This document shows, piece after piece, positions 1,641-19,121 of a stretch of DNA of 47,366 nt. The DNA is from a virus (taxonomy: Duplodnaviria > Heunggongvirae > Uroviricota > Caudoviricetes). The notes under the pieces are model-generated. The model was not told where the DNA came from. It was given only the letters and a program-made list of their open reading frames with translations, and ran no database searches. Location of the stretch: IMG/VR virus record IMGVR_UViG_2630968533_000004, one strand, 5' to 3'. Made by a program: the position numbers and the translations under genes. The number at the start of each line of letters is the position of its first letter. Position 1 is the stretch's first letter.

Positions 1641-4112
1641 TTAAGAATCAGCCTGACTCGGGATCAGTTTTTGCCAGATAGCTGAAACGTATTTTGCCTG
1701 GTAACGGGCGTCATCAAGTGCATTATGGCGCTCACCTTCGAATGGAATAGCCGTTCTGGCATCGAAGTCTATGGCTTTCCCCAGCTCAACGATTGTGCGT
1801 ACATCGCGATCGTTGTAGTAACGCCACGGGCAGGGGATCCCCTGCCGTTCGTATGAACGGCGCAAAATCGTGTTGTCGAAGTTGGCTCCATTTCCCCAGA
1901 CATGAACAAAAAATTCACCGGAGTTTTCGTCGATAAATTCCCGCAATTGTAACAGTGCATCATCTAACGGGATTTCATCGGTCATAATGGCAGATTGCGC
2001 TTCGCGTGATTGTTTAAGCCACCATTTAATGGTGTCCCGATCAATGACTCCGCCAGCAGTTTCCAGATCGATAGTCTTACTAAATTCCGGTCCCATATCT
2101 CCGGTTTGCGGATCGAAAAATATTGCACCTATTGAGATAATCGGGGCATCGGGATTTTTTCCCATGGTTTCAAGGTCGATCATCAGATGAATCCCCGCTC
2201 TGCTGGTGGATGTGAGATTATGATGACCGTTCACCTTAATTAAGGGATCTGACGCCTCGCCAGTTTCACTATCGCTGGCATGATGCTGATTGCTGCCAGT
2301 GTTCTCCTTGTGCTGATGCGCAGTGCCTTCCATTTCCTCCAGATCATTTTTCTGAACTTCAGGCTGATTCTCTCCATCGAATATTTCCTGGTATGTTGCG
2401 TCACCCATCACCGCACCACAATCAGGGCAGTTGCCGCCACCGCTCTGACCGCAGGCGGTGCAGATCTTTTCCGGTTCCTGTTGCACTACTGGTTCAGGTT
2501 GTTTCGTTTCTGGCTCGTTTTGTTGCGTATTTGGGCTGTTTTGTTCCGCTTTCTGGTCGTTCTGTTCCGTTTCTTGCTGGTTCTGGTTCACAGAATCGCG
2601 GGTCTGGATCCCCTTAATCCATTTCGGATCATTCGGGTCGCTAATCCCTTCAACAAATTCACCACGTGATACTGCAAGCAGTTCATCGGCGTCAGGCTGG
2701 CTGATATTGGCTGCCTGCATAATTTTGTTTACTTCGTCAGCGGTAACTTTTACTGACCCTGGTTGTGCGGTCGTGTCAGATGCACCAGTATTTTGTTGTG
2801 AACCTGAGTATGTACCGTTTTTGCGGGCGAAATATTCTTCTTTCGTGATTTCAGTAGCCCCAGCAGACAGCGCCTTATCCAGACCAGAAAGTTTATTTGC
2901 GCGACCGTATTTTTCGCCATCCTTGTCGGTGAAGAGGAAGTAGAACGGCCCCTCACGTTCTACAGATGGTTCGACTTCCACTTTGCATTCGGTTTTTTCG
3001 TTGTCTGGAATTGCCGTTTCCACTGCATCAGTTTCTGGTACTGGCGACGAGAGAGTATCAGTTGCGCTCTGATTTGTTCCTTCATCTTCAAACACGCCCT
3101 TTGTAGTCAGGTATTCAGTAATGTATTTGTTCAGTGCCACAGGGTCTTTGTGAATGTCGATCGGACGTTCACGGACAAGGCCAAAAATAGTCTGGCGGTC
3201 GTAGCGAAGGGCATCAGGCTGTTTGCGCATTGATGCCGAGATACGCTTCCAGTCTTCGCGGTCGTTGTCGATAACTTCATTTTTTGCCCAGCGATGGATG
3301 CTGCCGTCAATGTTTCCGGCATCCACATCACCAGGCCAGAGAGCGTAGGCCAGTTCGTCATCCAGTGTTTTCCATGTCTGCTTGTATTCGCGATGAATGG
3401 CAGCAATGACCGGGTTGATTTTTCCTGTTGAATTTTCAGTGTGCTGTTGATTGGCTCTGGCGCGGGCGAGATCAACAACAGACGTGTATTTTCCGGCTTC
3501 CTTGCGTTCACCTTCGCGACGTTTTTTCCAGATGCGCATCTCTGCCTGAATTTCGGGCCATTTGGCACCAGGCTTACATTTATGCTTAACCCACCCGATG
3601 GCATGCAGCTTAAGCTCCGGATACATAGCGTTAACTTCTGGCATTTTCATCAACGCTTCAACGATATGGCCGTCGAATGTTGCCATGTCTTCCTGCAACA
3701 ATTCCTGTGCGCTAATCACCATATCAACAGTGATGTTTTCACATGTGTCGAACTTAACCATGACAGCGTTCTGTACTTCAGGGGCTAGGTTGTCAAAAGT
3801 GACGTTCATCGGATCGGATTCAGTCTCGACCGGGACAAAGGAAGCAGACGCCTCATCCCAGCGGTTTTCCTGCATATATTCAGCATCCCAGGAATCGAGG
3901 GCAGGGCGGGGTATACCGGGTTTATCCTCGCAAACAAGAAATTTATAAGCGCAGTCCTGAGCAGCCGGATAATGTTCCAGGAATTGCCAGTGAAATTTTG
4001 CGCGGGCGCGACGTTCATCACCGGCTTCAATGGCAGTGGCTACAGCGACGGCACCTTCTTCCTTTATTGCCTGTTCGTCCGGAATGGCGGCGCAAATAAA
4101 GACTTTACTCAT
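1641..4112 (-). CDS. Large exonuclease with C-terminal DnaQ-like (DEDDh) 3'-5' exonuclease domain
   Basis: 823-aa ORF; C-terminus carries MIDLETMG (Exo I), WGNGANFDNTIL (Exo II) and HNALDDARYQAKY (Exo III, H-x4-D) motifs; central CTACGQSGGGNCPDCG zinc-ribbon-like motif and Q/N/E-rich low-complexity linker. Confidence 0.75.
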   Translation of the reverse strand: MSKVFICAAIPDEQAIKEEGAVAVATAIEAGDERRARAKFHWQFLEHYPAAQDCAYKFLVCEDKPGIPRPALDSWDAEYMQENRWDEASASFVPVETESDPMNVTFDNLAPEVQNAVMVKFDTCENITVDMVISAQELLQEDMATFDGHIVEALMKMPEVNAMYPELKLHAIGWVKHKCKPGAKWPEIQAEMRIWKKRREGERKEAGKYTSVVDLARARANQQHTENSTGKINPVIAAIHREYKQTWKTLDDELAYALWPGDVDAGNIDGSIHRWAKNEVIDNDREDWKRISASMRKQPDALRYDRQTIFGLVRERPIDIHKDPVALNKYITEYLTTKGVFEDEGTNQSATDTLSSPVPETDAVETAIPDNEKTECKVEVEPSVEREGPFYFLFTDKDGEKYGRANKLSGLDKALSAGATEITKEEYFARKNGTYSGSQQNTGASDTTAQPGSVKVTADEVNKIMQAANISQPDADELLAVSRGEFVEGISDPNDPKWIKGIQTRDSVNQNQQETEQNDQKAEQNSPNTQQNEPETKQPEPVVQQEPEKICTACGQSGGGNCPDCGAVMGDATYQEIFDGENQPEVQKNDLEEMEGTAHQHKENTGSNQHHASDSETGEASDPLIKVNGHHNLTSTSRAGIHLMIDLETMGKNPDAPIISIGAIFFDPQTGDMGPEFSKTIDLETAGGVIDRDTIKWWLKQSREAQSAIMTDEIPLDDALLQLREFIDENSGEFFVHVWGNGANFDNTILRRSYERQGIPCPWRYYNDRDVRTIVELGKAIDFDARTAIPFEGERHNALDDARYQAKYVSAIWQKLIPSQADS

Positions 4113-4755: not shown

Positions 4756-4808
4756 GGGCGGCAGAGCAGTCACGGAGTAAAACTGATACCGCCAAACGTC
4801 ACCAGAAA
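4756..4808 (-). ncRNA. dicF: DicF small RNA (53 nt) followed by U-tract
   Basis: Reverse complement of 4756..4808 reads TTTCTGGTGACGTTTGGCGGTATCAGTTTTACTCCGTGACTGCTCTGCCGCCC followed by TTTTTAA, matching the recalled DicF sequence; located between ydfA-like and dicB as in Qin. Confidence 0.8.
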
Positions 4809-5284: not shown

Positions 5285-5630
5285 GAACTTGCAGGACGTC
5301 ATGATCGTAACTTCCATCCAAACCGCGACGGCAAATTGCTTCTCGTATTACCGGAAGCAGTTCGCTGGAAATCTCGGTGCATATTTCACCTGATAATACG
5401 CCTGGCTCAAGTGAGAATATTGGTGAACTTACGGTCTTGGTCTCGACAGTTTCAGAGTCAGTGCCAACATTATAAAGCTCAACGAAAGCGGTCTTGATTT
5501 TCCGGGCCAGATCTTTTGCTGGCTCGCTTGCAATATCTTTCCCGATTTCTCGCAGCACAGAATGCAATGTATGAGCTGCTGTTTTCTGTACATCAGACGG
5601 TAAATCTTTAAATTCCATCGTCAGCCTCAT
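5253..5630 (-). CDS. Hypothetical early-left operon protein (possibly YdfB/YdfC-like)
   Basis: 125-aa ORF between ydfA-like gene and DicF on the operon strand; family assignment from position only. Confidence 0.45.
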   Translation of the reverse strand: MRLTMEFKDLPSDVQKTAAHTLHSVLREIGKDIASEPAKDLARKIKTAFVELYNVGTDSETVETKTVSSPIFSLEPGVLSGEICTEISSELLPVIREAICRRGLDGSYDHDVLQVLRTMVTSLGI

Positions 5631-5782
5631 CAGTCAGTGTTTCTGGCTAACCAGCAACGCGCGCCAGATTCGGTTTTAAACGTTTTGCTTTTGGTATATG
5701 TCATCGCGGTGAACGTACCGTCCTGGTTGGGGAACACGCCACATACCAGAGATTCGCTGTTGCCAAGATCGATAGTATCCAT
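5630..5782 (-). CDS. ydfA: YdfA-like small protein (50 aa)
   Basis: Internal Met of ORF 5630..5938 gives MDTIDLGNSESLVCGVFPNQDGTFTAMTYTKSKTFKTESGARCWLARNTD; first gene of the operon downstream of the dicA-proximal promoter region. Confidence 0.55.
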   Translation of the reverse strand: MDTIDLGNSESLVCGVFPNQDGTFTAMTYTKSKTFKTESGARCWLARNTD

Positions 5783-5897
5783 GCTGACCTCATTTCCCCT
5801 TAACGCCGGGGTAGCGGAACTGTTTGCTGAGAACACCGTGCGGTGTCTTGATGGAAGTAATTTAGTTTTCTCATTATTTTTCGTCAAGGTTTTTTGA

Positions 5898-5909
5898 TGA
5901 GAAAACTCA
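5898..5909. promoter_or_regulatory. Palindromic operator-like site TGAGAAAACTCA upstream of early-left operon
   Basis: 12-bp perfect palindrome in the sequence TTGATGAGAAAACTCAAGTATTGG, repeated almost exactly at 6433..6446. Confidence 0.5.
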
Positions 5910-5974
5910 AGTATTGGCGCAAGATAAAGCCAATACATTGAAATGTAAGGCTTTAAAATTTTGTGAAGGGATGA

Positions 5975-6382
5975 TTATTGATGCTTGTTGCGTTTGCGAG
6001 CCTCTAATAGCTCGGTGAACAGGCGATTAAAATTCTCAACGCGGGCGCGGAGTTCGCTGAGTTGTGCTTGTTGCTCTGATTTAGGAAGTGCGCGATACAA
6101 ACGCAGCATCTCTAACTCATCTTCCGATAAGTCTAAGGCACTATCGAGTGAAACAGGGGGAGCTGGTGTTTTGTCCTCGTCGCCAAACAGTATCCAGGTT
6201 GGTGAACATTGCAATACCTCGGCGAGGCGATGCAAATTTTGCCCGCGCGGGGCTGTATGGTCACTTTCCCATAATGAAATTGATGAGCCAGATACGCCAG
6301 CAGCTTTGCTTAAACCGTTTTGACTTAAGCCTACCTGCTTACGTCTTTCTCTAATGCGTTGACCTAAAGTTTTCTCGTTCAT
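5975..6382 (-). CDS. dicA: DicA-type HTH (XRE-family) repressor
   Basis: Internal Met of ORF 5975..6433 gives 135 aa MNEKTLGQRIRERRKQVGLSQNGLSKAAGVSGSSISLWESDHTAPRGQNLHRLAEVLQCSPTWILFGDEDK...; HTH motif plus C-terminal region resembling recalled DicA; divergent from a Cro-like gene. Confidence 0.85.
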   Translation of the reverse strand: MNEKTLGQRIRERRKQVGLSQNGLSKAAGVSGSSISLWESDHTAPRGQNLHRLAEVLQCSPTWILFGDEDKTPAPPVSLDSALDLSEDELEMLRLYRALPKSEQQAQLSELRARVENFNRLFTELLEARKRNKHQ

Positions 6383-6432
6383 ATTTAGATATCTTAATAA
6401 CCCTTGACTTGAGATTCCTTGAGTGATTAGCA

Positions 6433-6446
6433 TTGAGAAAACTCAA
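6433..6446. promoter_or_regulatory. Palindromic operator-like site TTGAGAAAACTCAA in dicA-dicC intergenic region
   Basis: Sits 14 bp upstream of the dicC ATG, between the divergent repressor genes; same core as 5898..5909. Confidence 0.5.
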
Positions 6447-6459
6447 TATTGGAGGTGCG

Positions 6460-6687
6460 ATGTTTAAATCAGACGTAATTAATTTTTACGGTACGAAAGC
6501 CAAAGTAGCGAAAGCTGCTGGCGTTGACCCATCTGCTGTTTCTCAATGGCAAGAGCTGGTTCCTGAAGGTCGCGCGATGCGTCTACAGGAGGCATCTGGC
6601 GGCGAGCTTCTGTATGATCCCAAGGTTTATGACGAATATCGTAAGACGAAGCGGGCGGGGCGGTTGAACAATGAAAATCACTCCTGA
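6460..6687 (+). CDS. dicC: DicC-like (Cro-like) regulator
   Basis: 75-aa protein MFKSDVINFYGTKAKVAKAAGVDPSAVSQWQ...; GGAGG RBS 5 nt upstream; divergent from dicA. Confidence 0.75.
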   Translation: MFKSDVINFYGTKAKVAKAAGVDPSAVSQWQELVPEGRAMRLQEASGGELLYDPKVYDEYRKTKRAGRLNNENHS

Positions 6688-7192
6688 ACAGGCTCGTGAG
6701 GCTCTGGATGCCTGGATATGTCGACCAGGAATGACACAGGAGCAGGCGACGATATTAATCACTGAAGCATTCTGGGCTTTGAAAGAGCGCCCGAACATCG
6801 ATGTTCAGCGTGTCACAGATGAAGGTGGCGCGGTTGATCAGCGAGCGCTTGGCGTTAATCGAGTGAAGATATTCGAACGCTGGAAGGCTATCGACACTAG
6901 GGATAAGCGTGAAAAGTTCACGGCGCTAGTGCCTGCAATTATGGAGGCTATCCGGATTAATGATTTCAGGTTGTATCGTGAAATTAGTGACGGAAAAAGC
7001 ATCACGTACATGATCGCCGGGTTAAACAAAGAATATGGCGATGTGGTGGAGTCCGGACTGCTTTTTGCTGATCCTGCCGTAGTGGATCGTGAAACTGACG
7101 AACTTATAGAAAAAGCAATTGCTTTCAAACTTGCGTATCGACAGCAATACCAACAAAAAGCTGGATGGAATTATGAGCCTTCTTTTTGCTGA
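6671..7192 (+). CDS. YdaT-like regulatory protein
   Basis: 173-aa ORF in the CII-equivalent position after the Cro-like gene; segment RVKIFERWKAIDTRDKREKFTALVPAIMEAI resembles the recalled YdaT family pattern. Confidence 0.5.
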   Translation: MKITPEQAREALDAWICRPGMTQEQATILITEAFWALKERPNIDVQRVTDEGGAVDQRALGVNRVKIFERWKAIDTRDKREKFTALVPAIMEAIRINDFRLYREISDGKSITYMIAGLNKEYGDVVESGLLFADPAVVDRETDELIEKAIAFKLAYRQQYQQKAGWNYEPSFC

Positions 7193-8580: not shown

Positions 8581-8779
8581 TGTTAGGTATTTTAGACGTT
8601 ACTAGATTAAAAAGCATTAGTTCAGGAGTGAATTGACATTCTCATTTTTCATGGCACAGGGTAGATCTGGCGTGGTTGTCCGCTTTGTGCCAGAAGCGGA
8701 CGTTACAATACAATCACTATGCTAATGCGCATTGATATGTGATATAACAATAATCAACCGTTCAAAAAGGAGCATTTAT

Positions 8780-9802
8780 ATGAGCAGGATGATAATTGAT
8801 ACAAATATTCTTTACTCACTAGTTGGTCTGTCGACAAACCAAAAAATAATTAACTCCCCTATAGATCAATTCAAATTATCCATTACGACACCATCACTCA
8901 TAGAAGTGATCTCTAAATATTGCAATGACTTAGGGGCTGTAAAAAAATGCATTAGCCCAATCATAAACGGAAATATTGAACTAATTAGCATTGGTCATAC
9001 TCCAATCTCAAATGAATTTCTTTATAGGTTGCATTTTTCAGACAAAATAGACGAAGTAAAAGATATTATTGATAATGTTAGAGCACTAAAAATATCTAGA
9101 GAGGCTGAGTTTTATAGGTTCATACTCATACTGGTTGTCTCTGGTTTGTTTGAGGTTATTAGAGAAGATGGATACAAGTTTGATAACGATGTACAAAATC
9201 AAAGTCAACTTAGTCTTGTGCAGACTCTACTTGAATCTAATATGGAATTAATTTTAGACTTCTTTAAAGATGAGTTGCGGAATGGATATATTAATGGAAA
9301 TGAGCAGCAATCAGCTTTGAAAGCTTTTGAAACCATGCTTATCGGACTCCTACATGCTTTTCATGTCAACTATCATATGATTAAAACTGACACAGTTAAC
9401 ATTTCCGGAAGCCAAGACAGACTCAAAAATCTGTATGATAGTATAAAAAATGATAATTTTGATAAAAAGTTTAAAAAATATATGGAGAATCCAATATCCC
9501 TTGCCTGCAAAAAAAAACACGAATCAGTAGTTGATAACTACCTGAAAGAAATGGAGGAGGGGATTTCTGGCGCTCGTGGGCTTACTAAGAATTCGTTGAG
9601 CTTTCTAATGAGCAAGGTTGAGGATGCATATAAAAATGGTCGTAAATTACGAAAAAATGACATATTTGACTTTCTAATAGTTATTTCTCTAAATATGCCA
9701 GACACTTTGATTTTAACACTTGATAAAGGTTTTTTAAAAGACCTTAAAGATCTTCACCCTAACAGCTATAAAAAGTGTCTGGATTTCGGTTTTGTAAATT
9801 AA
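8780..9802 (+). CDS. AT-rich cargo protein, candidate PIN-like nuclease fold (possible defence / abortive-infection gene)
   Basis: 340 aa from ATG at 8780 with AAGGAG RBS; N-terminus MSRMIIDTNILYSLVG resembles the start of PIN domains (catalytic Asp in DTN), C-terminus DTLILTLDKGF resembles a PIN C-terminal strand; K/N/I-rich composition, visibly lower GC than flanking phage genes. Confidence 0.65.
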   Translation: MSRMIIDTNILYSLVGLSTNQKIINSPIDQFKLSITTPSLIEVISKYCNDLGAVKKCISPIINGNIELISIGHTPISNEFLYRLHFSDKIDEVKDIIDNVRALKISREAEFYRFILILVVSGLFEVIREDGYKFDNDVQNQSQLSLVQTLLESNMELILDFFKDELRNGYINGNEQQSALKAFETMLIGLLHAFHVNYHMIKTDTVNISGSQDRLKNLYDSIKNDNFDKKFKKYMENPISLACKKKHESVVDNYLKEMEEGISGARGLTKNSLSFLMSKVEDAYKNGRKLRKNDIFDFLIVISLNMPDTLILTLDKGFLKDLKDLHPNSYKKCLDFGFVN

Positions 9803-10873
9803 AAATATATTGATGTAAAATAAAACGCACCCACATTTAACTTAGCTAGACTATATCCTTCAATTATTCTATCTGCTTTTTGTTAAATGTGGGGTTGCAG
9901 ATGTTACGAGTCAATTAAATTTGCAAGTCAGGTAGAATTGATAAGAATTGCAATACGAATCCGTGAACATTAATGCTAACGCTAAGTATACGAAAGATAT
10001 TGTAAATATACTTCTTTTTTTGTTTTTAAGTTCTTTTATTTGACAGTAGTTCCATCATTCAATTGCGTATTATCTTCCAATGCCAGTGACACTCCCTCAT
10101 TATGAGAGGATTGTGGTAATCAAAAGAAAAATTAATATCACGCCAAGAATATTCGAAACCAACCCTATGGTGTTAAGTCCTGGTGATGTCATTTAGTTTG
10201 CTCTAGGTTTATTATTCAGAAAGCAAAGAATATTCGTTAAATTATTATGTTAGCTTTAATTATTAAAAAACATGTTAATTATCATCAAATGAGCACTTAT
10301 CATCATTTTAGTCAAAGAGGTAGTGAGTATTCATTCTGGATCATAACTGCCTTCCTGTTTACGCTAGTGTTTTTTAAAGTCGATGTCCGCTCATCGCTCA
10401 AAGCGGACTAGAAGGTTAGCTTGTGTCGGACTTTGCGTATTAAATGACTAGTGGTTGAGCCCCATTTCCACAGAAAAAATCAGAGAAACTATACCCAATA
10501 GTTGTATTGAATCACTGACGAGACAGCCTCATATTCATCAGGACTGGTGTACGTCCAATACAGGAGGTTGTGGTGCTGGTTCTCAAATGTGCGCTGGCTA
10601 TTACGGCTGTAATGGCGATTTATTGTCTTGCTATTGTTCTTATGGATCGCCTTTCTGACTGATTTCACATTGGCGAGGTAACGGTAGTTAAGTAGAATGG
10701 CTGCGGGTGCTTGAGGCTATCTGCCTCGGGCATGAACACCAACGGCAGATAGAGAAAAGCCCCAGTTAACATTACGCGTCCTGCAAGACGCTTAACATTA
10801 ATCTGAGGCCAATTTCATGCTAGACACATGTAGGTTAGCCTCTTACGTGCCGAAAGGCAAGGAGAAGCAGGCT

Positions 10874-11029
10874 ATGAAGCAGCAAAAGGCGATGTTAATC
10901 GCCCTGATCGTCATCTGTTTAACCGTCATAGTGACGGCACTGGTAACGAGGAAAGACCTCTGCGAGGTACGAATCCGAACCGGGCAGACGGAGGTCGCTG
11001 TCTTCACAGCTTACGAACCTGAGGAGTAA
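10874..11029 (+). CDS. hokD: Hok/Gef-family type I toxin
   Basis: 51 aa MKQQKAMLIALIVICLTVIVTALVTRKDLCEVRIRTGQTEVAVFTAYEPEE matches recalled HokD/RelF; ORF extends upstream in-frame (10817). Confidence 0.85.
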   Translation: MKQQKAMLIALIVICLTVIVTALVTRKDLCEVRIRTGQTEVAVFTAYEPEE

Positions 11030-11245: not shown

Positions 11246-11497
11246 ATGATGAACATCGAAGAACTGCGTAAAATTTTTTGTGAAGATGGCCTCTATGCGG
11301 TGTGCGTTGAAAATGGAAATCTTGTTAGTCATTACCGCATTATGTGTTTGCGAAAGAATGGGGCTGCGTTAATTAATTTTGTGGATGGTCGAGTGACAGA
11401 CGGATTTATCTTGCGCGAAGGTGAGTTTGTCACTTCATTACAGGCACTGAAAGAGATCGGAATAAAAGCAGGCTTTTCAGCTTTTGCAGAAGAATAA
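11246..11497 (+). CDS. rem: Rem-like small protein
   Basis: 83-aa MMNIEELRKIFCEDGLYAVCVENGN...; size and position after hok as in Qin. Confidence 0.55.
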   Translation: MMNIEELRKIFCEDGLYAVCVENGNLVSHYRIMCLRKNGAALINFVDGRVTDGFILREGEFVTSLQALKEIGIKAGFSAFAEE

Positions 11498-13276: not shown

Positions 13277-14098
13277 ATGAAACTGGAAGATTTACCGAAA
13301 TACTACTCCCCAAAATCCCCTGGCCTGACCGATGCATCGGCCTCAACGTCAAAAGATGCGCTGAGTATCACTGATGTGATGGCCGCGCAGGGCATGACAC
13401 AGAATCGGGCTGAGATGGGTTTTTCTGCGTTCCTGGGGAAAATGGGCATCAGTATGAATGACAGGGCGCGGGCAACAGAATTACTGGCAGATTATGCACT
13501 CAGTCGGTGCGATCGTGTGGCGGCGTTGAGAAAACTTCCGGCAGAAATAAAACCGGTAGTGATGCGCATTATGGCTTCGTACGCTTTTGAGGATTATGCC
13601 CGCAGCGCAGCGAGTAAAAAGCAGTGCCCTTGTTGCTATGGGGAAAAATTTATTGAAAGCATAGTTTTTACAAACAAGGTCCAGTATCCGGATGGTAAGC
13701 CGCCGGTATGGGCAAAGTGTACGAAAGGTGTGTATCCGTCTTACTGGGAAGAATGGAAAAAAGTCAGGGAGGTGGTAAAAGTTGCCTGTCCGGAGTGTGG
13801 CGGAAAGGGTGAGGTTTCCACCGCCTGTAAGGATTGCCGTGGGCGTGGTGTCGCCATTCATCGTGAAGAGTCGGTAAAACGTGGTATGCCTGTTGTCAGA
13901 GACTGCCAGCGTTGTGGTGGTCGTGGCTATGAAAGACTACCATCAACGGAGGCATTTAATGCTATATGCGAGGTGACAAACCAGATAACACGCGCGTCAT
14001 GGGAAAAAACAGTTAAGAAATTCTATGATGCGCTGGTGACCCGGTTTGATATTGAAGAAGCATGGGCTGAGCGGCAGTTAAAAAAGGTAACTAGGTAA
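13277..14098 (+). CDS. Late-gene antiterminator Q
   Basis: 273 aa with Cys-rich zinc-binding segments (CPCCYG, CPECGGKGEVSTACKDCRGRG, CQRCGGRG); immediately upstream of pR'-like promoter, terminator and tRNAs. Confidence 0.8.
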   Translation: MKLEDLPKYYSPKSPGLTDASASTSKDALSITDVMAAQGMTQNRAEMGFSAFLGKMGISMNDRARATELLADYALSRCDRVAALRKLPAEIKPVVMRIMASYAFEDYARSAASKKQCPCCYGEKFIESIVFTNKVQYPDGKPPVWAKCTKGVYPSYWEEWKKVREVVKVACPECGGKGEVSTACKDCRGRGVAIHREESVKRGMPVVRDCQRCGGRGYERLPSTEAFNAICEVTNQITRASWEKTVKKFYDALVTRFDIEEAWAERQLKKVTR

Positions 14099-14241: not shown

Positions 14242-14317
14242 GGCCCTTTAGCTCAGTGGTGAGAGCGAGCGACTCATAATCGCCAGGTCGCTGGTTCAAA
14301 TCCAGCAAGGGCCACCA
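14242..14317 (+). tRNA. tRNA-Ile2 (anticodon CAU, lysidine type) or Met
   Basis: 76-nt cloverleaf folded by hand: acceptor GGCCCTT/AAGGGCC, D-stem GCTC/GAGC, anticodon loop CTCATAA, T-arm GCTGG-TTCAAAT-CCAGC, CCA end; close to recalled E. coli ileX. Confidence 0.85.
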
Positions 14318-14417
14318 TCACAAACCGCCATTAGCTTATCAGGAAGAGCAGACGACACGATAACAGGGTTGTTGGTGCGGGGGCGGGTCCCCGATGGCGG
14401 TCCATTATCGGTATTCA

Positions 14418-14494
14418 GCGTTGTTAGCTCAGCCGGACAGAGCAATTGCCTTCTAAGCAATCGGTCACTGGTTCGAATCCAGTACAGCGCGCCA
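14418..14494 (+). tRNA. tRNA-Arg (anticodon UCU)
   Basis: Acceptor GCGTTGT/ACAGCGC, anticodon stem ATTGC/GCAAT with loop CTTCTAA, T-loop GGTTCGAATCC, CCA end. Confidence 0.85.
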
Positions 14495-14958: not shown

Positions 14959-15491
14959 ATACATATCTGGATTATCACCTGTTACGGTAAAAAGTGATTG
15001 CTTACTGTTTTTGTGAATGGCATTGCAGCAGCCGGATAATGTCAGTGCTGGCTGACGGTGTGCTGGTGGCGGGTGTGGTGGTTGTTGCTTTCCCGTTGCT
15101 GAAAAAGAAAACGCCAGACTGTTAGCCGGGTATCAGTTAGCGGGAGAAATTTTTAAATACTTCACAATTCAGGCGGTTGACTGTTCTCTGGTTTGCGGGG
15201 AGTTTGTTAAAAGAAACTGGCATGGTGAATCCCCCTGTGCGGAGGGGCAATCAGCGAGTAGGTATATGGGATAATCGCGGATTCAGGTGCTGGTACTGAA
15301 TTCACCGGGAGGCACCCGGCACCATGCACTTCAATAGATTCTCTCCACATTATGGATATTCTTTCAGAATATCCCACGCAGACTTTGTGTAAATGTTAAC
15401 AAATGTGCGTTTTATTTGATCTGATTCGCTGTTTGAGCGTCCAAAACAACGGTATATATAATCCTTTACTATATGACATATGTGAGGAAAA

Positions 15492-18273: not shown

Positions 18274-18637
18274 ATTAATATTAAATCGGATTATTTTTAG
18301 CGCTGAATGTGAAATTTAAATAAAAAGGACTCTTCCATGAGTCAAAATCCTTGAAATCTTAAGGGTAAGATAAAAGGTCATTAGACAGAATGACACGTTT
18401 TATTAATAAATAAAGCTATTGTTTCATTCGTGTGTTTTTCTTTACAAAAGTAATCCTTGCTATGGTTGGTTAATCATGCGTTAATGGTGTTCTGGTTTGT
18501 TACAAAATTATCTGAAGCAGTCATTGTTATAATTTTATTATTTGTACCTCTTGAGATTTCCTTGTTGGTTTTTCTCTCTGATATTTTTTTTTCGGACCAT
18601 TCTGCCCAAGGGCTAACTTCTTCAAAAGGTAATAATG

Positions 18638-18850
18638 ATGTCTAACAAAATGACTGGTTTAGTGAAATGGTTTAACCCTGAAAAAGGTTTTGGTTTCATC
18701 ACGCCGAAAGATGGTAGCAAAGATGTGTTTGTGCATTTCTCAGCTATTCAGAGCAACGATTTCAAAACGTTAACTGAGAATCAGGAAGTCGAATTTGGTA
18801 TTGAGAACGGACCTAAAGGCCCTGCAGCTGTTCATGTAGTGGCACTTTGA
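18638..18850 (+). CDS. cspI: Cold-shock protein (CspA family, CspI-like)
   Basis: [38 protein letters not shown]... with RNP1/RNP2 motifs; long AT-rich 5' leader typical of csp genes. Confidence 0.85.
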
Positions 18851-19121
18851 GGTAGAAAATATTACAAACCATATTCACTTTAGATGCCCGTGTTGCCATG
18901 GTTCTCAGTATAGAACATCATCTTTTGATGTTTCTGACAGAAATCCTTTCGGGGCAAAATGTATCTTTTGTAAATCAATGATGATTACATTTGATAATAT
19001 TTCACAATACTTAAATGTTAGCCATCTGTCGTTAGATTTAAGAAAGTGAAAATGAAGGCTCCTTCGGGAGCTTTTTTGCTTAGTGTCTAGTCGATGGATA
19101 CTCACATATTACGGTAACATT

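Follow-up and report, generated by a model that had tools for sequence, protein, structure and literature searches.

Candidate operators of a P22-type immunity region on both sides of a DicA-like repressor gene in a temperate phage

The window analysed here, that is, the whole stretch of 47,366 nucleotides of viral DNA (IMG/VR record IMGVR_UViG_2630968533_000004), carries a repressor gene and a P22_Cro-family gene that are divergently transcribed and flank a right-hand operator region (OR). The genes and the small RNA that matter for the analysis are the following.

4756–4807, minus strand: DicF small RNA, belonging to the leftward operon (Rfam RF00039; 76.7 bits, gathering score 48)
5630–5782, minus strand: ydfA-like gene, which opens the leftward operon (Pfam DUF1391, E 4e-27)
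5975–6382, minus strand: repressor gene, 135 aa, with an N-terminal P22 c2-type helix-turn-helix and a short DicA-type C-terminal part
6460–6687, plus strand: dicC/cro-like gene (75 aa); ribosome-binding site GGAGG at 6450–6454 (Pfam P22_Cro, E 3e-16; PHROG 409, transcriptional regulator)
6671–7192, plus strand: gene for a YdaT/cII-like regulator (Pfam YdaT_toxin, E 1e-5; PHROG 163, CII-like transcriptional activator, E 2e-40)
11246–11497, plus strand: Rem homologue, a candidate antirepressor (tblastn, 96% identity to K-12 Rem over 83 aa)

The region also occurs in functional phages such as HannyBb and mEp460_ev081, the latter being 100% identical here and described as functional (PMC10448788); the identical phage record has an annotation for dicB. 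Of 5426 complete E. coli genomes, 796 carry at least 80% of the 1.1-kb region.

The original prediction had called the repressor cI-like, which holds for its function and not for its domain make-up. In Pfam, helix-turn-helix families were the only matches (HTH_3, E 2e-15), and no Peptidase_S24 or LexA-like cleavage domain was found. Residues 1–72 matched the N-terminal structures of P22 c2 (1ADR, 2R1J and 3JXB; E 8e-16 to 1e-14), and the match with c2 stopped at residue 72. Along its full length, the protein is 56% identical to DicA of Qin, which has the same length. Because the S24/LexA-like domain is absent, RecA-mediated cleavage is not expected to be the route of induction.

As had been predicted, the same palindrome lies near both promoters: the exact 12-mer TGAGAAAACTCA was found at 5898–5909 and at 6434–6445, and a pattern search detected no third copy elsewhere in the window. 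The right-hand string had been placed correctly at 6432–6452, whereas the left-hand 24-mer spans 5894–5917 instead of 5896–5917, an offset of 2 nt. The gap between the right-hand 12-mer and the dicC-like ATG at 6460 is 14 nt, as had been said. The flanks (..CAAGTATTGG and ..CAATATTGG), which had been considered nearly identical, are indeed similar in the window, but they are not kept by relatives, and the similarity on the right-hand side is the GGAGG ribosome-binding site of dicC. The right-hand copy (6432–6447) is a perfect 6+4+6 palindrome, ATTGAG-AAAA-CTCAAT, and the symmetry of the left-hand copy is limited to TGAG/CTCA.

The palindrome is not scattered over unrelated positions. In addition to the 12-mer, which occurs nowhere else, its 9-mer core GAGAAAACT has four copies within 580 bp (5864–6443) and only one outside this cluster, with 0.39 copies expected in the whole 47 kb. 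Two of these copies were rejected as operators. The one at 6368–6376, in codons 2–5 of the repressor gene, scored 0.7 bits, is missing from the relatives that share 75% repressor identity and hence probably does not serve as an operator; the one at 13528, inside the Q antiterminator gene, scored 6.3 bits and was judged to be a chance occurrence. The idealised palindrome ATTGAG-N4-CTCAAT was not enriched in the window, with 3 matches at up to two mismatches (2.45 expected) and 12 at up to three (23 expected). Since counting mismatches in this way is uninformative, we used a weight matrix trained on relatives from other genera only, with the window excluded from the training set. Its four best matches in the window were four sites within 5859–6448 (24.2, 19.4, 17.7 and 17.4 bits); the fifth-best score was 10.8 bits, and the best score of shuffled windows averaged 12.8. 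The signal thus comes from the clustering, the A-tract centre and the conservation of the sites, and not from the arm consensus alone. Among the four are two good sites, 5859–5876 and 6382–6399, that had been overlooked in the original prediction. A literature search with the operator string returned unrelated primers only. The candidate operators and the predicted promoters, with their presumed start sites, are listed below.

5859–5876: L2, OL1-like candidate operator, TAATGAGAAAACTAAATT on the minus strand
5859–5887, minus strand: predicted leftward PL-like promoter (dicBp-like; TTGACG, 17 bp, TAAATT; start near 5852; consensus scan)
5895–5912: L1, OL2-like candidate operator and left-hand copy of the original prediction, tgaTGAGAAAACTCAagt
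6382–6399: Oa, OR3-like candidate operator, TATTTAGATATCTTAATA, with 10 of 12 arm positions matching and an ATAT centre
6391–6419, minus strand: predicted maintenance promoter of the repressor (PRM-like; AGGAAT, 17 bp, TAAGAT; start near 6385)
6404–6433, plus strand: predicted rightward PR-like promoter (dicCp-like; TTGACT, 18 bp, TAGCAT; start near 6440; consensus scan)
6407–6424: Om, OR2-like position, ACTTGAGATTCCTTGAGT, with one good half-site
6431–6448: Oc, OR1-like candidate operator, cATTGAGAAAACTCAATa; its 16-bp dyad is perfect and centred on A4

The sites and promoters were compared with the immC region of P22 (BK000583.1), whose annotation, based on experiments, gives the operators and promoters as protein_bind and regulatory features. 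The region that holds the candidate sites is base-for-base colinear with the annotated OR1–3, OL, PR, PRM and PL. The centres of the OR sites are 24 and 25 bp apart (23 and 25 in P22) and those of the OL sites 36 bp apart (35 in P22). Also common to both are the −10 elements TAAGAT (PRM) and TAAATT (PL), the −35 TTGAC, the PRM −35 AGGAAT, a cro gene of the P22_Cro family, 18-bp operators with four central bases, and the order of the sites and their overlap with promoters on both sides.

On the right-hand side, Oc is the best match of the matrix (rank 1, 24.2 bits). At the rightward promoter it extends over the final bases of the −10 and over the presumed start site, abutting TAGCAT in the consensus scan, and aligns with OR1 of P22 and with the Oc site of Qin. 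Oa (rank 3, 17.7 bits), with two mismatches to ATTGAG-N4-CTCAAT, lies over the −10 of the repressor gene's promoter and over the first base of that gene's start codon, and aligns with OR3. The third member of the trio, Om, aligns with OR2 of P22, ACTAAAGGAATCTTTAGT, and overlaps the −35 elements of two promoters, the rightward one (TTGACT) and that of the repressor (AGGAAT). The P22 OR2 equivalent is, in the window, a half-site only (7.0 bits, rank 18), and although its block is kept in relatives, the two −35 elements alone could account for that. Om is at best a weak operator, and because of this weakness the cooperativity between OR1 and OR2 known from lambda and P22 may not apply. The rightward promoter is colinear with the annotated PR; in relatives its −35 is invariant, and its −10 keeps TAnnAT while the middle bases vary. 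The maintenance promoter was not reported by the consensus scan and was placed by colinearity only, as its hexamers and spacing are identical to those of the annotated PRM. The P22 transcript has only 4 nt ahead of the c2 ATG, and the start predicted near 6385 would likewise make the repressor mRNA nearly leaderless.

On the left-hand side, L2 (rank 2, 19.4 bits; one mismatch to the 12-mer) lies in the spacer and −10 of the predicted leftward promoter (TTGACG/TAAATT) and aligns with OL1 of P22, ATTAAGAAGTCTTAAATT. A centre-to-centre distance of 36 bp separates it from L1 (rank 4, 17.4 bits), which contains the exact 12-mer, ends 8 bp upstream of the −35, shows poor symmetry outside TGAG/CTCA and aligns with ATTTAAGTTTTCTTCAAA, inside the annotated OL. 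The left-hand copy had been proposed as the operator of a PL-like promoter; it is found upstream of the −35, where it corresponds to OL2 of P22, and it is the overlooked L2 that covers the spacer and −10. No clear equivalent of OL3 was seen in the window. The leftward promoter is colinear with the annotated PL, with the same TAAATT −10, and with dicBp of Qin, and the presence of DicF in the leftward operon shows it to be the counterpart of dicBp.

With regard to the proteins, the N-terminal DNA-binding domains are homologous (47% identity over 72 aa, tblastn), whereas c2 has 216 aa with a LexA-like cleavage domain and the repressor of the window has 135 aa with a DicA-type C-terminal part. The recognition helices read SGSSISLWES in the window and SNVAISQWER in P22, and the half-sites TTGAG and TTAAG differ at one position. 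In P22, the repressor makes no contact with the four central base pairs of its operator and has its highest affinity for A-tract centres (KD 4.3 nM, against 14.4 and 57.6 nM; PMC4267663), a preference that fits the invariant AAAA centre of Oc, L1 and L2.

Conservation was evaluated by phylogenetic footprinting of seven loci from Escherichia, Buttiauxella and viral contigs, with repressors 75–100% identical. The invariant blocks corresponded to the operator cores and the promoter hexamers, while the flanks diverged. In relatives whose repressors share 75% identity and the recognition helix, the operator cores were the same, and among the blocks without any change were TGAGTTTTCTCAAT of Oc, TGAGTTTTCTCA of L1 and, on the minus strand, TGAGAAAACTAA of L2. 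Among 55 sequence variants, 4 of 52 positions were variable in operator cores, as compared with 50 of 181 in the other intergenic positions (Fisher p = 0.0025); none of the 12 positions of the Oc core and none of the 16 of Oa varied. Searching viral contigs with the alignment of repressors yielded near-identical loci only, which inform the analysis of variation, not of covariation. The exact 16-mer was present in 120 viral contigs, and this repressor adjoins it in 78 of them.

These results bear on the possibility that the repeat is a chance similarity, or a functionless leftover of a duplication between the two promoter regions. This would be in keeping with the shortness of the arms, with the lack of window-wide enrichment of the idealised palindrome at up to two mismatches, and with the 9-mer copies at 13528 and inside the repressor gene, which do look like chance. 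Nevertheless, the top four matrix matches of 47 kb fall within 590 bp, their cores are kept across genera while the flanks diverge, the cores are depleted of variation, and the whole arrangement is colinear with operators that were defined experimentally in P22, all of which makes this explanation barely credible.

It is also highly improbable, if slightly less so, that the repeats are elements of promoter architecture with no dedicated protein, such as A-tract bends, UP-like elements, sites for Fis, IHF or H-NS or, in the case of L1, the U-tract of a terminator. All three of the best-conserved sites do have an A4/T4 centre, silencing of Qin by Fis and Hfq has been reported, and a hairpin (z = −2.8) follows the stop codon of the repressor gene just before L1, a position from which L1 could also act in termination. 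What is conserved, however, includes the dyad-symmetric GAG/CTC arms and not the A-tract only. In other immunity types the arms at these positions are different, and some of the centres are not A-tracts (ATCAAT, CATA). Moreover, L2 and Oc are inside core promoters, where a bend element would be unexpected. As for termination, no rho-independent terminator after the repressor gene passed the terminator scan, and the stem is not clearly kept in relatives.

The arrangement recurs in other DicA-like loci. When the Oc-like palindrome of each of 16 such loci was picked with a positional restriction, the locus's own palindrome was found twice more downstream of the repressor gene, 34–36 bp apart, in 12 of the 16 (p for both < 0.01). 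Cross-matching of operators among these loci was confined to specificity groups: Oc of the window matched OL regions at 11–13 of 14 arm positions within its own group and at no more than 9 elsewhere.

Qin itself belongs to a different specificity. The order of the dicC-like gene, the dicA-like gene, ydfA, DicF and dicB is the same in both elements, the leader of the ydfA-like gene is nearly identical to that of ydfA in Qin, and each has Rem or a homologue of it, an operator 14 bp from the dicC start and a downstream promoter with two operator copies (35–36 bp apart). The operators, in turn, differ, TTGTTAGT-CATA-ACTAACAA in Qin against ATTGAG-AAAA-CTCAAT in the window. Oc of the window, ATTGAGAAAACTCAAT, and Oc of Qin, TTGTTAGTCATAACTAACAA, do not point to the same immunity, and the match with the OL region of Qin, at 8 of 14 arm positions, is at background level. 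Qin and the phage of the window would be expected to be heteroimmune as a result of these differences. Qin is a cryptic remnant, whereas the element in the window is of the functional temperate type of mEp460_ev081 and HannyBb. In Qin, DicA binds Oc, represses dicC and activates dicA (PMC3441716), and it also represses dicBp, an effect antagonised by Rem (PMC10448788). The colinearity with dicC-dicA-dicBp of Qin and with immC of P22 supports the central claim of the original prediction, that of repressor operators at PR-like and PL-like promoters on either side of the repressor gene.

Another lambdoid switch with the same layout is that of CP-933P of E. coli O157:H7 (PaaR2/YdaS/YdaT), which also has a leaderless repressor gene, Cro-like and cII-like (YdaT) genes and repeated palindromes at PR/PRM and PL. 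It differs in that its repressor, PaaR2, is encoded in a toxin-antitoxin operon, and its four 18-bp repeats, with the half-site GTTTAGTAA, are unrelated in sequence to those of the window.

The sites of the window might serve mainly the Cro-like DicC or the YdaT/cII-like protein, with the DicA-like repressor acting elsewhere or only at Oc. DicC is a DNA binder of the P22_Cro family, DicA of Qin was bound in vivo to Oc only and not to Om or Oa (PMC3441716), which also leaves the role assigned to Oa uncertain, and the footprints of the Cro-like YdaS and of PaaR2 overlap in CP-933P (PMC8630535). Against this, changes in the half-site follow the recognition helix of the repressor across loci, a link seen in only 3–4 sequence classes, and the YdaT site of CP-933P, TTGATT-N6-AATCAA, differs in spacing and sequence. 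In addition, every studied lambdoid switch shares its operators between repressor and Cro, so that binding by DicC would complement binding by the repressor rather than replace it. As an alternative we consider this very unlikely, if the least unlikely of the three.

The palindromes are therefore best read as operators of an immunity region of the P22 type with a repressor that ends in a short DicA-type C-terminus, a reading to which, on the sequence evidence, we give a probability of about 0.88. With their own recognition sequence they very probably represent a new specificity of a well-known design, and they do not reveal a new regulatory principle. From the sites and their positions we infer how protein binding, the order of site occupancy, autoregulation and induction may proceed. 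Dimers of the repressor would bind the 18-bp sites, (T)ATTGAG-N4-CTCAAT(A), with the recognition helix reading the outer bases and the uncontacted A/T centre being read indirectly, via the shape of the minor groove. Occupancy of Oc would cover the −10/+1 of the dicC/cro promoter and shut it off. Oa, over the −10 of the repressor's own promoter, could mediate negative autoregulation, or it could be a site preferred by the Cro-like DicC. A dimer at L2 would occlude leftward transcription by covering the spacer and −10 of the promoter that drives the ydfA-dicF-dicB-exonuclease operon; L1, 36 bp upstream and beyond the −35, may be a further site for the same protein. DicC, with preferences of its own, probably binds these sites too, and a bistable switch would result.

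Induction, which in P22 goes via RecA, would presumably be brought about here by the Rem-type antirepressor (11246–11497) and not by RecA-mediated cleavage. The Gifsy-type proteins GfoR and GfhR, with which DicA has been grouped, are short lambdoid repressors that have no Ala-Gly cleavage site and are inactivated by small antirepressors (PMC10448788). The likeness is drawn from their published description, and the antirepressors of the Gifsy type are LexA-controlled, whereas no LexA box (CTG-N10-CAG-like) was found near the rem homologue of the window.

More speculatively, repression and autoregulation might operate through a small loop between OL and OR, held together by oligomerisation of the DicA-type C-terminal part, and not through cooperativity between adjacent sites. 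The idea comes from the degenerate OR2, the two strong sites on each side and the distance of approximately 536 bp between OL and OR, which enclose the repressor gene. A separate speculation is that very few changes in the recognition helix (Gln37 to Leu, Val33 to Ser) encode the shift of the half-site from TTAAG/TTAG to TTGAG. We regard these proposals as tentative and, taken together, rather unlikely to be right; if true, a helix change of a few residues would offer a simple specificity code for building orthogonal repressors.

The analysis provides a set of operators and a likely promoter map for a common E. coli immunity type, and concrete sites at which heteroimmunity with DicA of Qin may be addressed. 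It also makes the control of the cell-division inhibitors dicF and dicB approachable in a live phage, and it opens a route to dissecting how specificity changes in helix-turn-helix domains of the P22 type.

The original prediction, that the same palindromic 12-mer recurs at both promoters flanking the repressor gene, was borne out: TGAGAAAACTCA occurs exactly at 5898-5909 and 6434-6445, and a search of all 47,366 bp of the window gave exact matches at these two sites only. On the right, the copy forms a perfect dyad of 16 bp (ATTGAG-AAAA-CTCAAT, 6432-6447); its flanked string lies at 6432-6452, as predicted, and 14 nt separate the 12-mer from the dicC ATG at 6460, also as predicted. The flanked left string spans 5894-5917, not 5896-5917 (an offset of 2 nt), and the symmetry of the left copy is limited to TGAG/CTCA. 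The core 9-mer GAGAAAACT is present four times within 5864-6443 and once more at 13528, with 0.39 copies expected per whole window. Two copies had been overlooked: an inverted one at 5862-5873 (TGAGAAAACTAA on the minus strand) and an exact GAGAAAACT at 6368-6376, within codons 2-5 (N-E-K-T) of the repressor gene.

Three relatives, two Buttiauxella genomes and a viral contig whose repressors are about 75% identical, contributed three sites each to a symmetrised 18-bp matrix for scoring the candidates; the window was left out.

Candidate sites, with matrix score and rank in the window
6431-6448: Oc, the OR1-like site; 24.2 bits, rank 1
5859-5876: L2, the OL1-like site; 19.4 bits, rank 2
6382-6399: Oa, the OR3-like site; 17.7 bits, rank 3
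5895-5912: L1, the OL2-like site; 17.4 bits, rank 4
next best match: 10.8 bits, rank 5
6407-6424: OR2-like site; 7.0 bits, rank 18
13528-13536: GAGAAAACT copy; 6.3 bits, rank 22
6368-6376: GAGAAAACT copy; 0.7 bits, rank 128

The mean top score in shuffled windows was 12.8. By this measure four sites are well supported, the OR2-like site is a weak candidate, and two copies look like chance. The copy at 13528 falls within the gene for the Q antiterminator (13277-14098), has a poor arm match and was judged to be fortuitous. The intragenic copy is confined to the E. coli clade: relatives whose repressors are 75% identical lack it, and codon choice probably produced it by coincidence.

Genes and predicted promoters
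4756-4807, minus: DicF small RNA (Rfam RF00039, 76.7 bits), further along the leftward operon
5630-5782, minus: ydfA (DUF1391)
5975-6382, minus: repressor ORF, a 135-aa HTH_3 protein
6460-6687, plus: dicC/cro-like ORF, P22_Cro family
6671-7192: YdaT/cII-like ORF
about 11246-11497, plus: Rem homologue, 96% identical to K-12 Rem
6404-6409 and 6428-6433, plus: rightward promoter, TTGACT, 18 bp, TAGCAT (consensus scan)
5887-5882 and 5864-5859, minus: leftward promoter, TTGACG, 17 bp, TAAATT (consensus scan)
6419-6414 and 6396-6391, minus: PRM-like promoter, AGGAAT, 17 bp, TAAGAT (hexamers as in P22 PRM)

The perfect dyad begins within the final two bases of the rightward -10 and spans the predicted start site. 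On the left, L1, the copy in the original prediction, sits upstream of the -35 of the leftward promoter; L2, which the prediction missed, occupies the spacer and -10. Beyond DicF, the leftward operon continues with a dicB-like ORF and the gene for an 823-aa RecE-like exonuclease (1641-4112). Just past the repressor stop codon (5912-5960, minus), alternative hairpins (GTATTGGC-N10-GCCAATAC and AAAGCC...GGCTTT; MFE -14.2 kcal/mol, z = -2.8) directly precede L1 with its TTTT centre, and could form a terminator insulating the leftward promoter. L1 might accordingly be read as the U-tract of a terminator rather than as an operator; the terminator scan, however, passed none, this hairpin included.

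Seven loci whose repressors are 75-100% identical were aligned; the blocks that never vary were Oc (TGAGTTTTCTCAAT), the two -35 elements with the weak site (CAAGGAA.CTCA.GTCAAG), Oa with the -10 and ATG (TATTAAGAT.TCTAAATATGAA), L1 (TGAGTTTTCTCA), L2 (TGAGAAAACTAA) and the leftward -35 (T.GAC), and the stretches separating them diverge. TAnnAT is retained in the rightward -10 and the bases at its middle change, behaviour to be expected of a functional -10. Across 55 distinct viral-contig variants, 4 of 52 operator-core positions were variable, versus 50 of 181 other intergenic positions (Fisher p = 0.0025). The exact 16-mer was found in 120 viral contigs, 78 of which have this repressor adjoining and three to four 9-mer copies; the other 42 carry a single isolated copy, presumably fortuitous in so large a collection.

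When the P22 immunity region, with its annotated OR1-3, OL1-3, PR, PRM, PL and PRM start site, was aligned to the window, the two proved colinear, element by element. OR1 (ATTAAAGAACACTTAAAT) corresponds to Oc, OR2 (ACTAAAGGAATCTTTAGT) to ACTCAAGGAATCTCAAGT at 6407-6424, and OR3 (ATTTAAGATGACTTAACT) to TATTAAGATATCTAAATA at 6382-6399, with centre spacings of 24 and 25 bp in the window and 23 and 25 bp in P22; the PRM hexamers and their 17-bp spacing are identical. The left regions (ATTTAAGTTTTCTTCAAAAATACACTTGACCATTTAATTAAGAAGTCTTAAATT in P22; ACTTGAGTTTTCTCATCAAAAAACCTTGACGAAAAATAATGAGAAAACTAAATT on the window minus strand) align such that L1 is the OL2 equivalent and L2 that of OL1, 36 bp apart compared with 35 bp in P22. 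The half-sites, TTGAG in the window and TTAAG in P22, differ at one position. A repeat due to chance, or left by a duplication, was also considered; clustering, conservation and this colinearity argue against both. Transcription from P22 PRM begins 4 nt ahead of the c2 start codon; by analogy the repressor mRNA is predicted to start near 6385 and would be nearly leaderless.

The repressor itself is 56% identical to Qin DicA along its full length, and residues 1-72 match the solved P22 c2 N-terminal domain (1ADR, 2R1J, 3JXB; E 8e-16 to 1e-14). P22 repressor sites are 18 bp long, contacted at positions 2-7 and 12-17, and the central four bases are read indirectly, with KD values of 4.3 nM for A-tract centres (the tightest), 14.4 nM for ATAT and 57.6 nM for G/C-containing centres (PMC4267663). 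This preference would explain the invariant AAAA centre of Oc, L1 and L2, and suggests that affinity decreases from these three to Oa (ATAT centre) and then to the OR2-like site (ATTC centre).

Qin offers an experimental precedent. Its Oc (TTGTTAGTCATAACTAACAA) is homologous to that of the window and likewise 14 bp from the dicC start; it binds DicA in vivo, one base change abolishing binding, and through it DicA represses dicC and activates dicA, while Qin Om and Oa showed no DicA binding in that in-vivo assay (PMC3441716). Scanning a single genome for each species gave 19 DicA-like loci, and 16 distinct ones were analysed by choosing the best palindrome with its centre 55-65 bp upstream of the repressor start codon. 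In 12 of these 16 loci, the locus's own palindrome recurs twice downstream of the repressor gene, 34-36 bp apart (joint shuffle p < 0.01). The window Oc matches downstream regions of its own group at 11-13 of 14 arm positions and those elsewhere at no more than 9, the pattern expected of immunity-specific operators. That the sites are A-tract or host-protein elements is harder to reconcile with arms that are conserved and differ by immunity type. TTGAG-type palindromes (window, Buttiauxella and, partly, one Citrobacter locus) all accompany the recognition helix ..ISLWES, TTAG-type ones (Qin, PPompW, a Rac-like element and others) ..SQWE..., and ATAAC-type ones ..FKWE...; with few independent classes, this correlation is a lead towards a helix-to-base code and not a demonstrated one. 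A DicA-like locus of Citrobacter braakii (1400-2060), which has a Leu-type helix (SHATISLWES) and operators mixing TTGAG-like and TTAAG/TTAG-like half-sites, may be of intermediate or relaxed specificity, and would then be useful for testing such a code.

We infer that repressor dimers on Oc would shut the dicC/cro promoter, and that repressor on L2, probably aided by L1, would shut the leftward promoter of the ydfA-dicF-dicB-exonuclease operon. Oa covers the repressor's own -10 and could mediate negative autoregulation or be a DicC-preferred site; DicC would turn off the repressor gene through the same sites, giving bistability. A role mainly as Cro or YdaT targets would complement rather than replace repressor binding, and the known YdaT site differs in form from those in the window. 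A domain search found no peptidase domain in the repressor ORF and, because a LexA-like domain is lacking, induction is expected via a Rem-type antirepressor instead of RecA-mediated cleavage. In K-12, dicBp is repressed by DicA and relieved by Rem (PMC10448788). Rem is 96% identical between the window and K-12 although the repressors share only 56%, so that, if Rem acts here, its target must be a conserved repressor part, possibly the C-terminal one. No CTG-N10-CAG LexA-like box was found near rem (11246-11497).

The 1.1-kb region is 100% identical to that of the functional temperate phage mEp460_ev081 and 98.5% to that of phage HannyBb, and at least 80% of it is found in 796 of 5426 complete E. 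coli genomes. Elsewhere in the window, a low-GC island (~8600-10500; 32-35% GC, about 47% around it) contains an ORF of 356 aa (8732-9802, plus) without a Pfam match, a possible accessory (moron) or defence gene; the island differs from mEp460_ev081, where another gene sits on the opposite strand. Rfam matches at 10705-10879, 14242-14491, 15191-15381 and 18479-18896 comprise a sok antitoxin RNA (hok/sok module), two tRNA genes, the sRNA STnc100 and a cspA-type thermoregulator 5' UTR, typical cargo of E. coli lambdoid prophages.

P22 immC and the Qin dicA-dicC-dicBp module, whose descriptions date back decades, have this same design. The gene content of such phages is already on record too: mEp460_ev081 has been noted to carry homologues of dicA, dicC, dicB, dicF and rem (PMC10448788). 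Mildly unusual features are how weak the OR2 equivalent is and how close together OL and OR lie (about 536 bp). The operator sequence made no appearance in the searchable literature and, as it differs from those of both P22 and Qin, points to a new immunity specificity on a known design.
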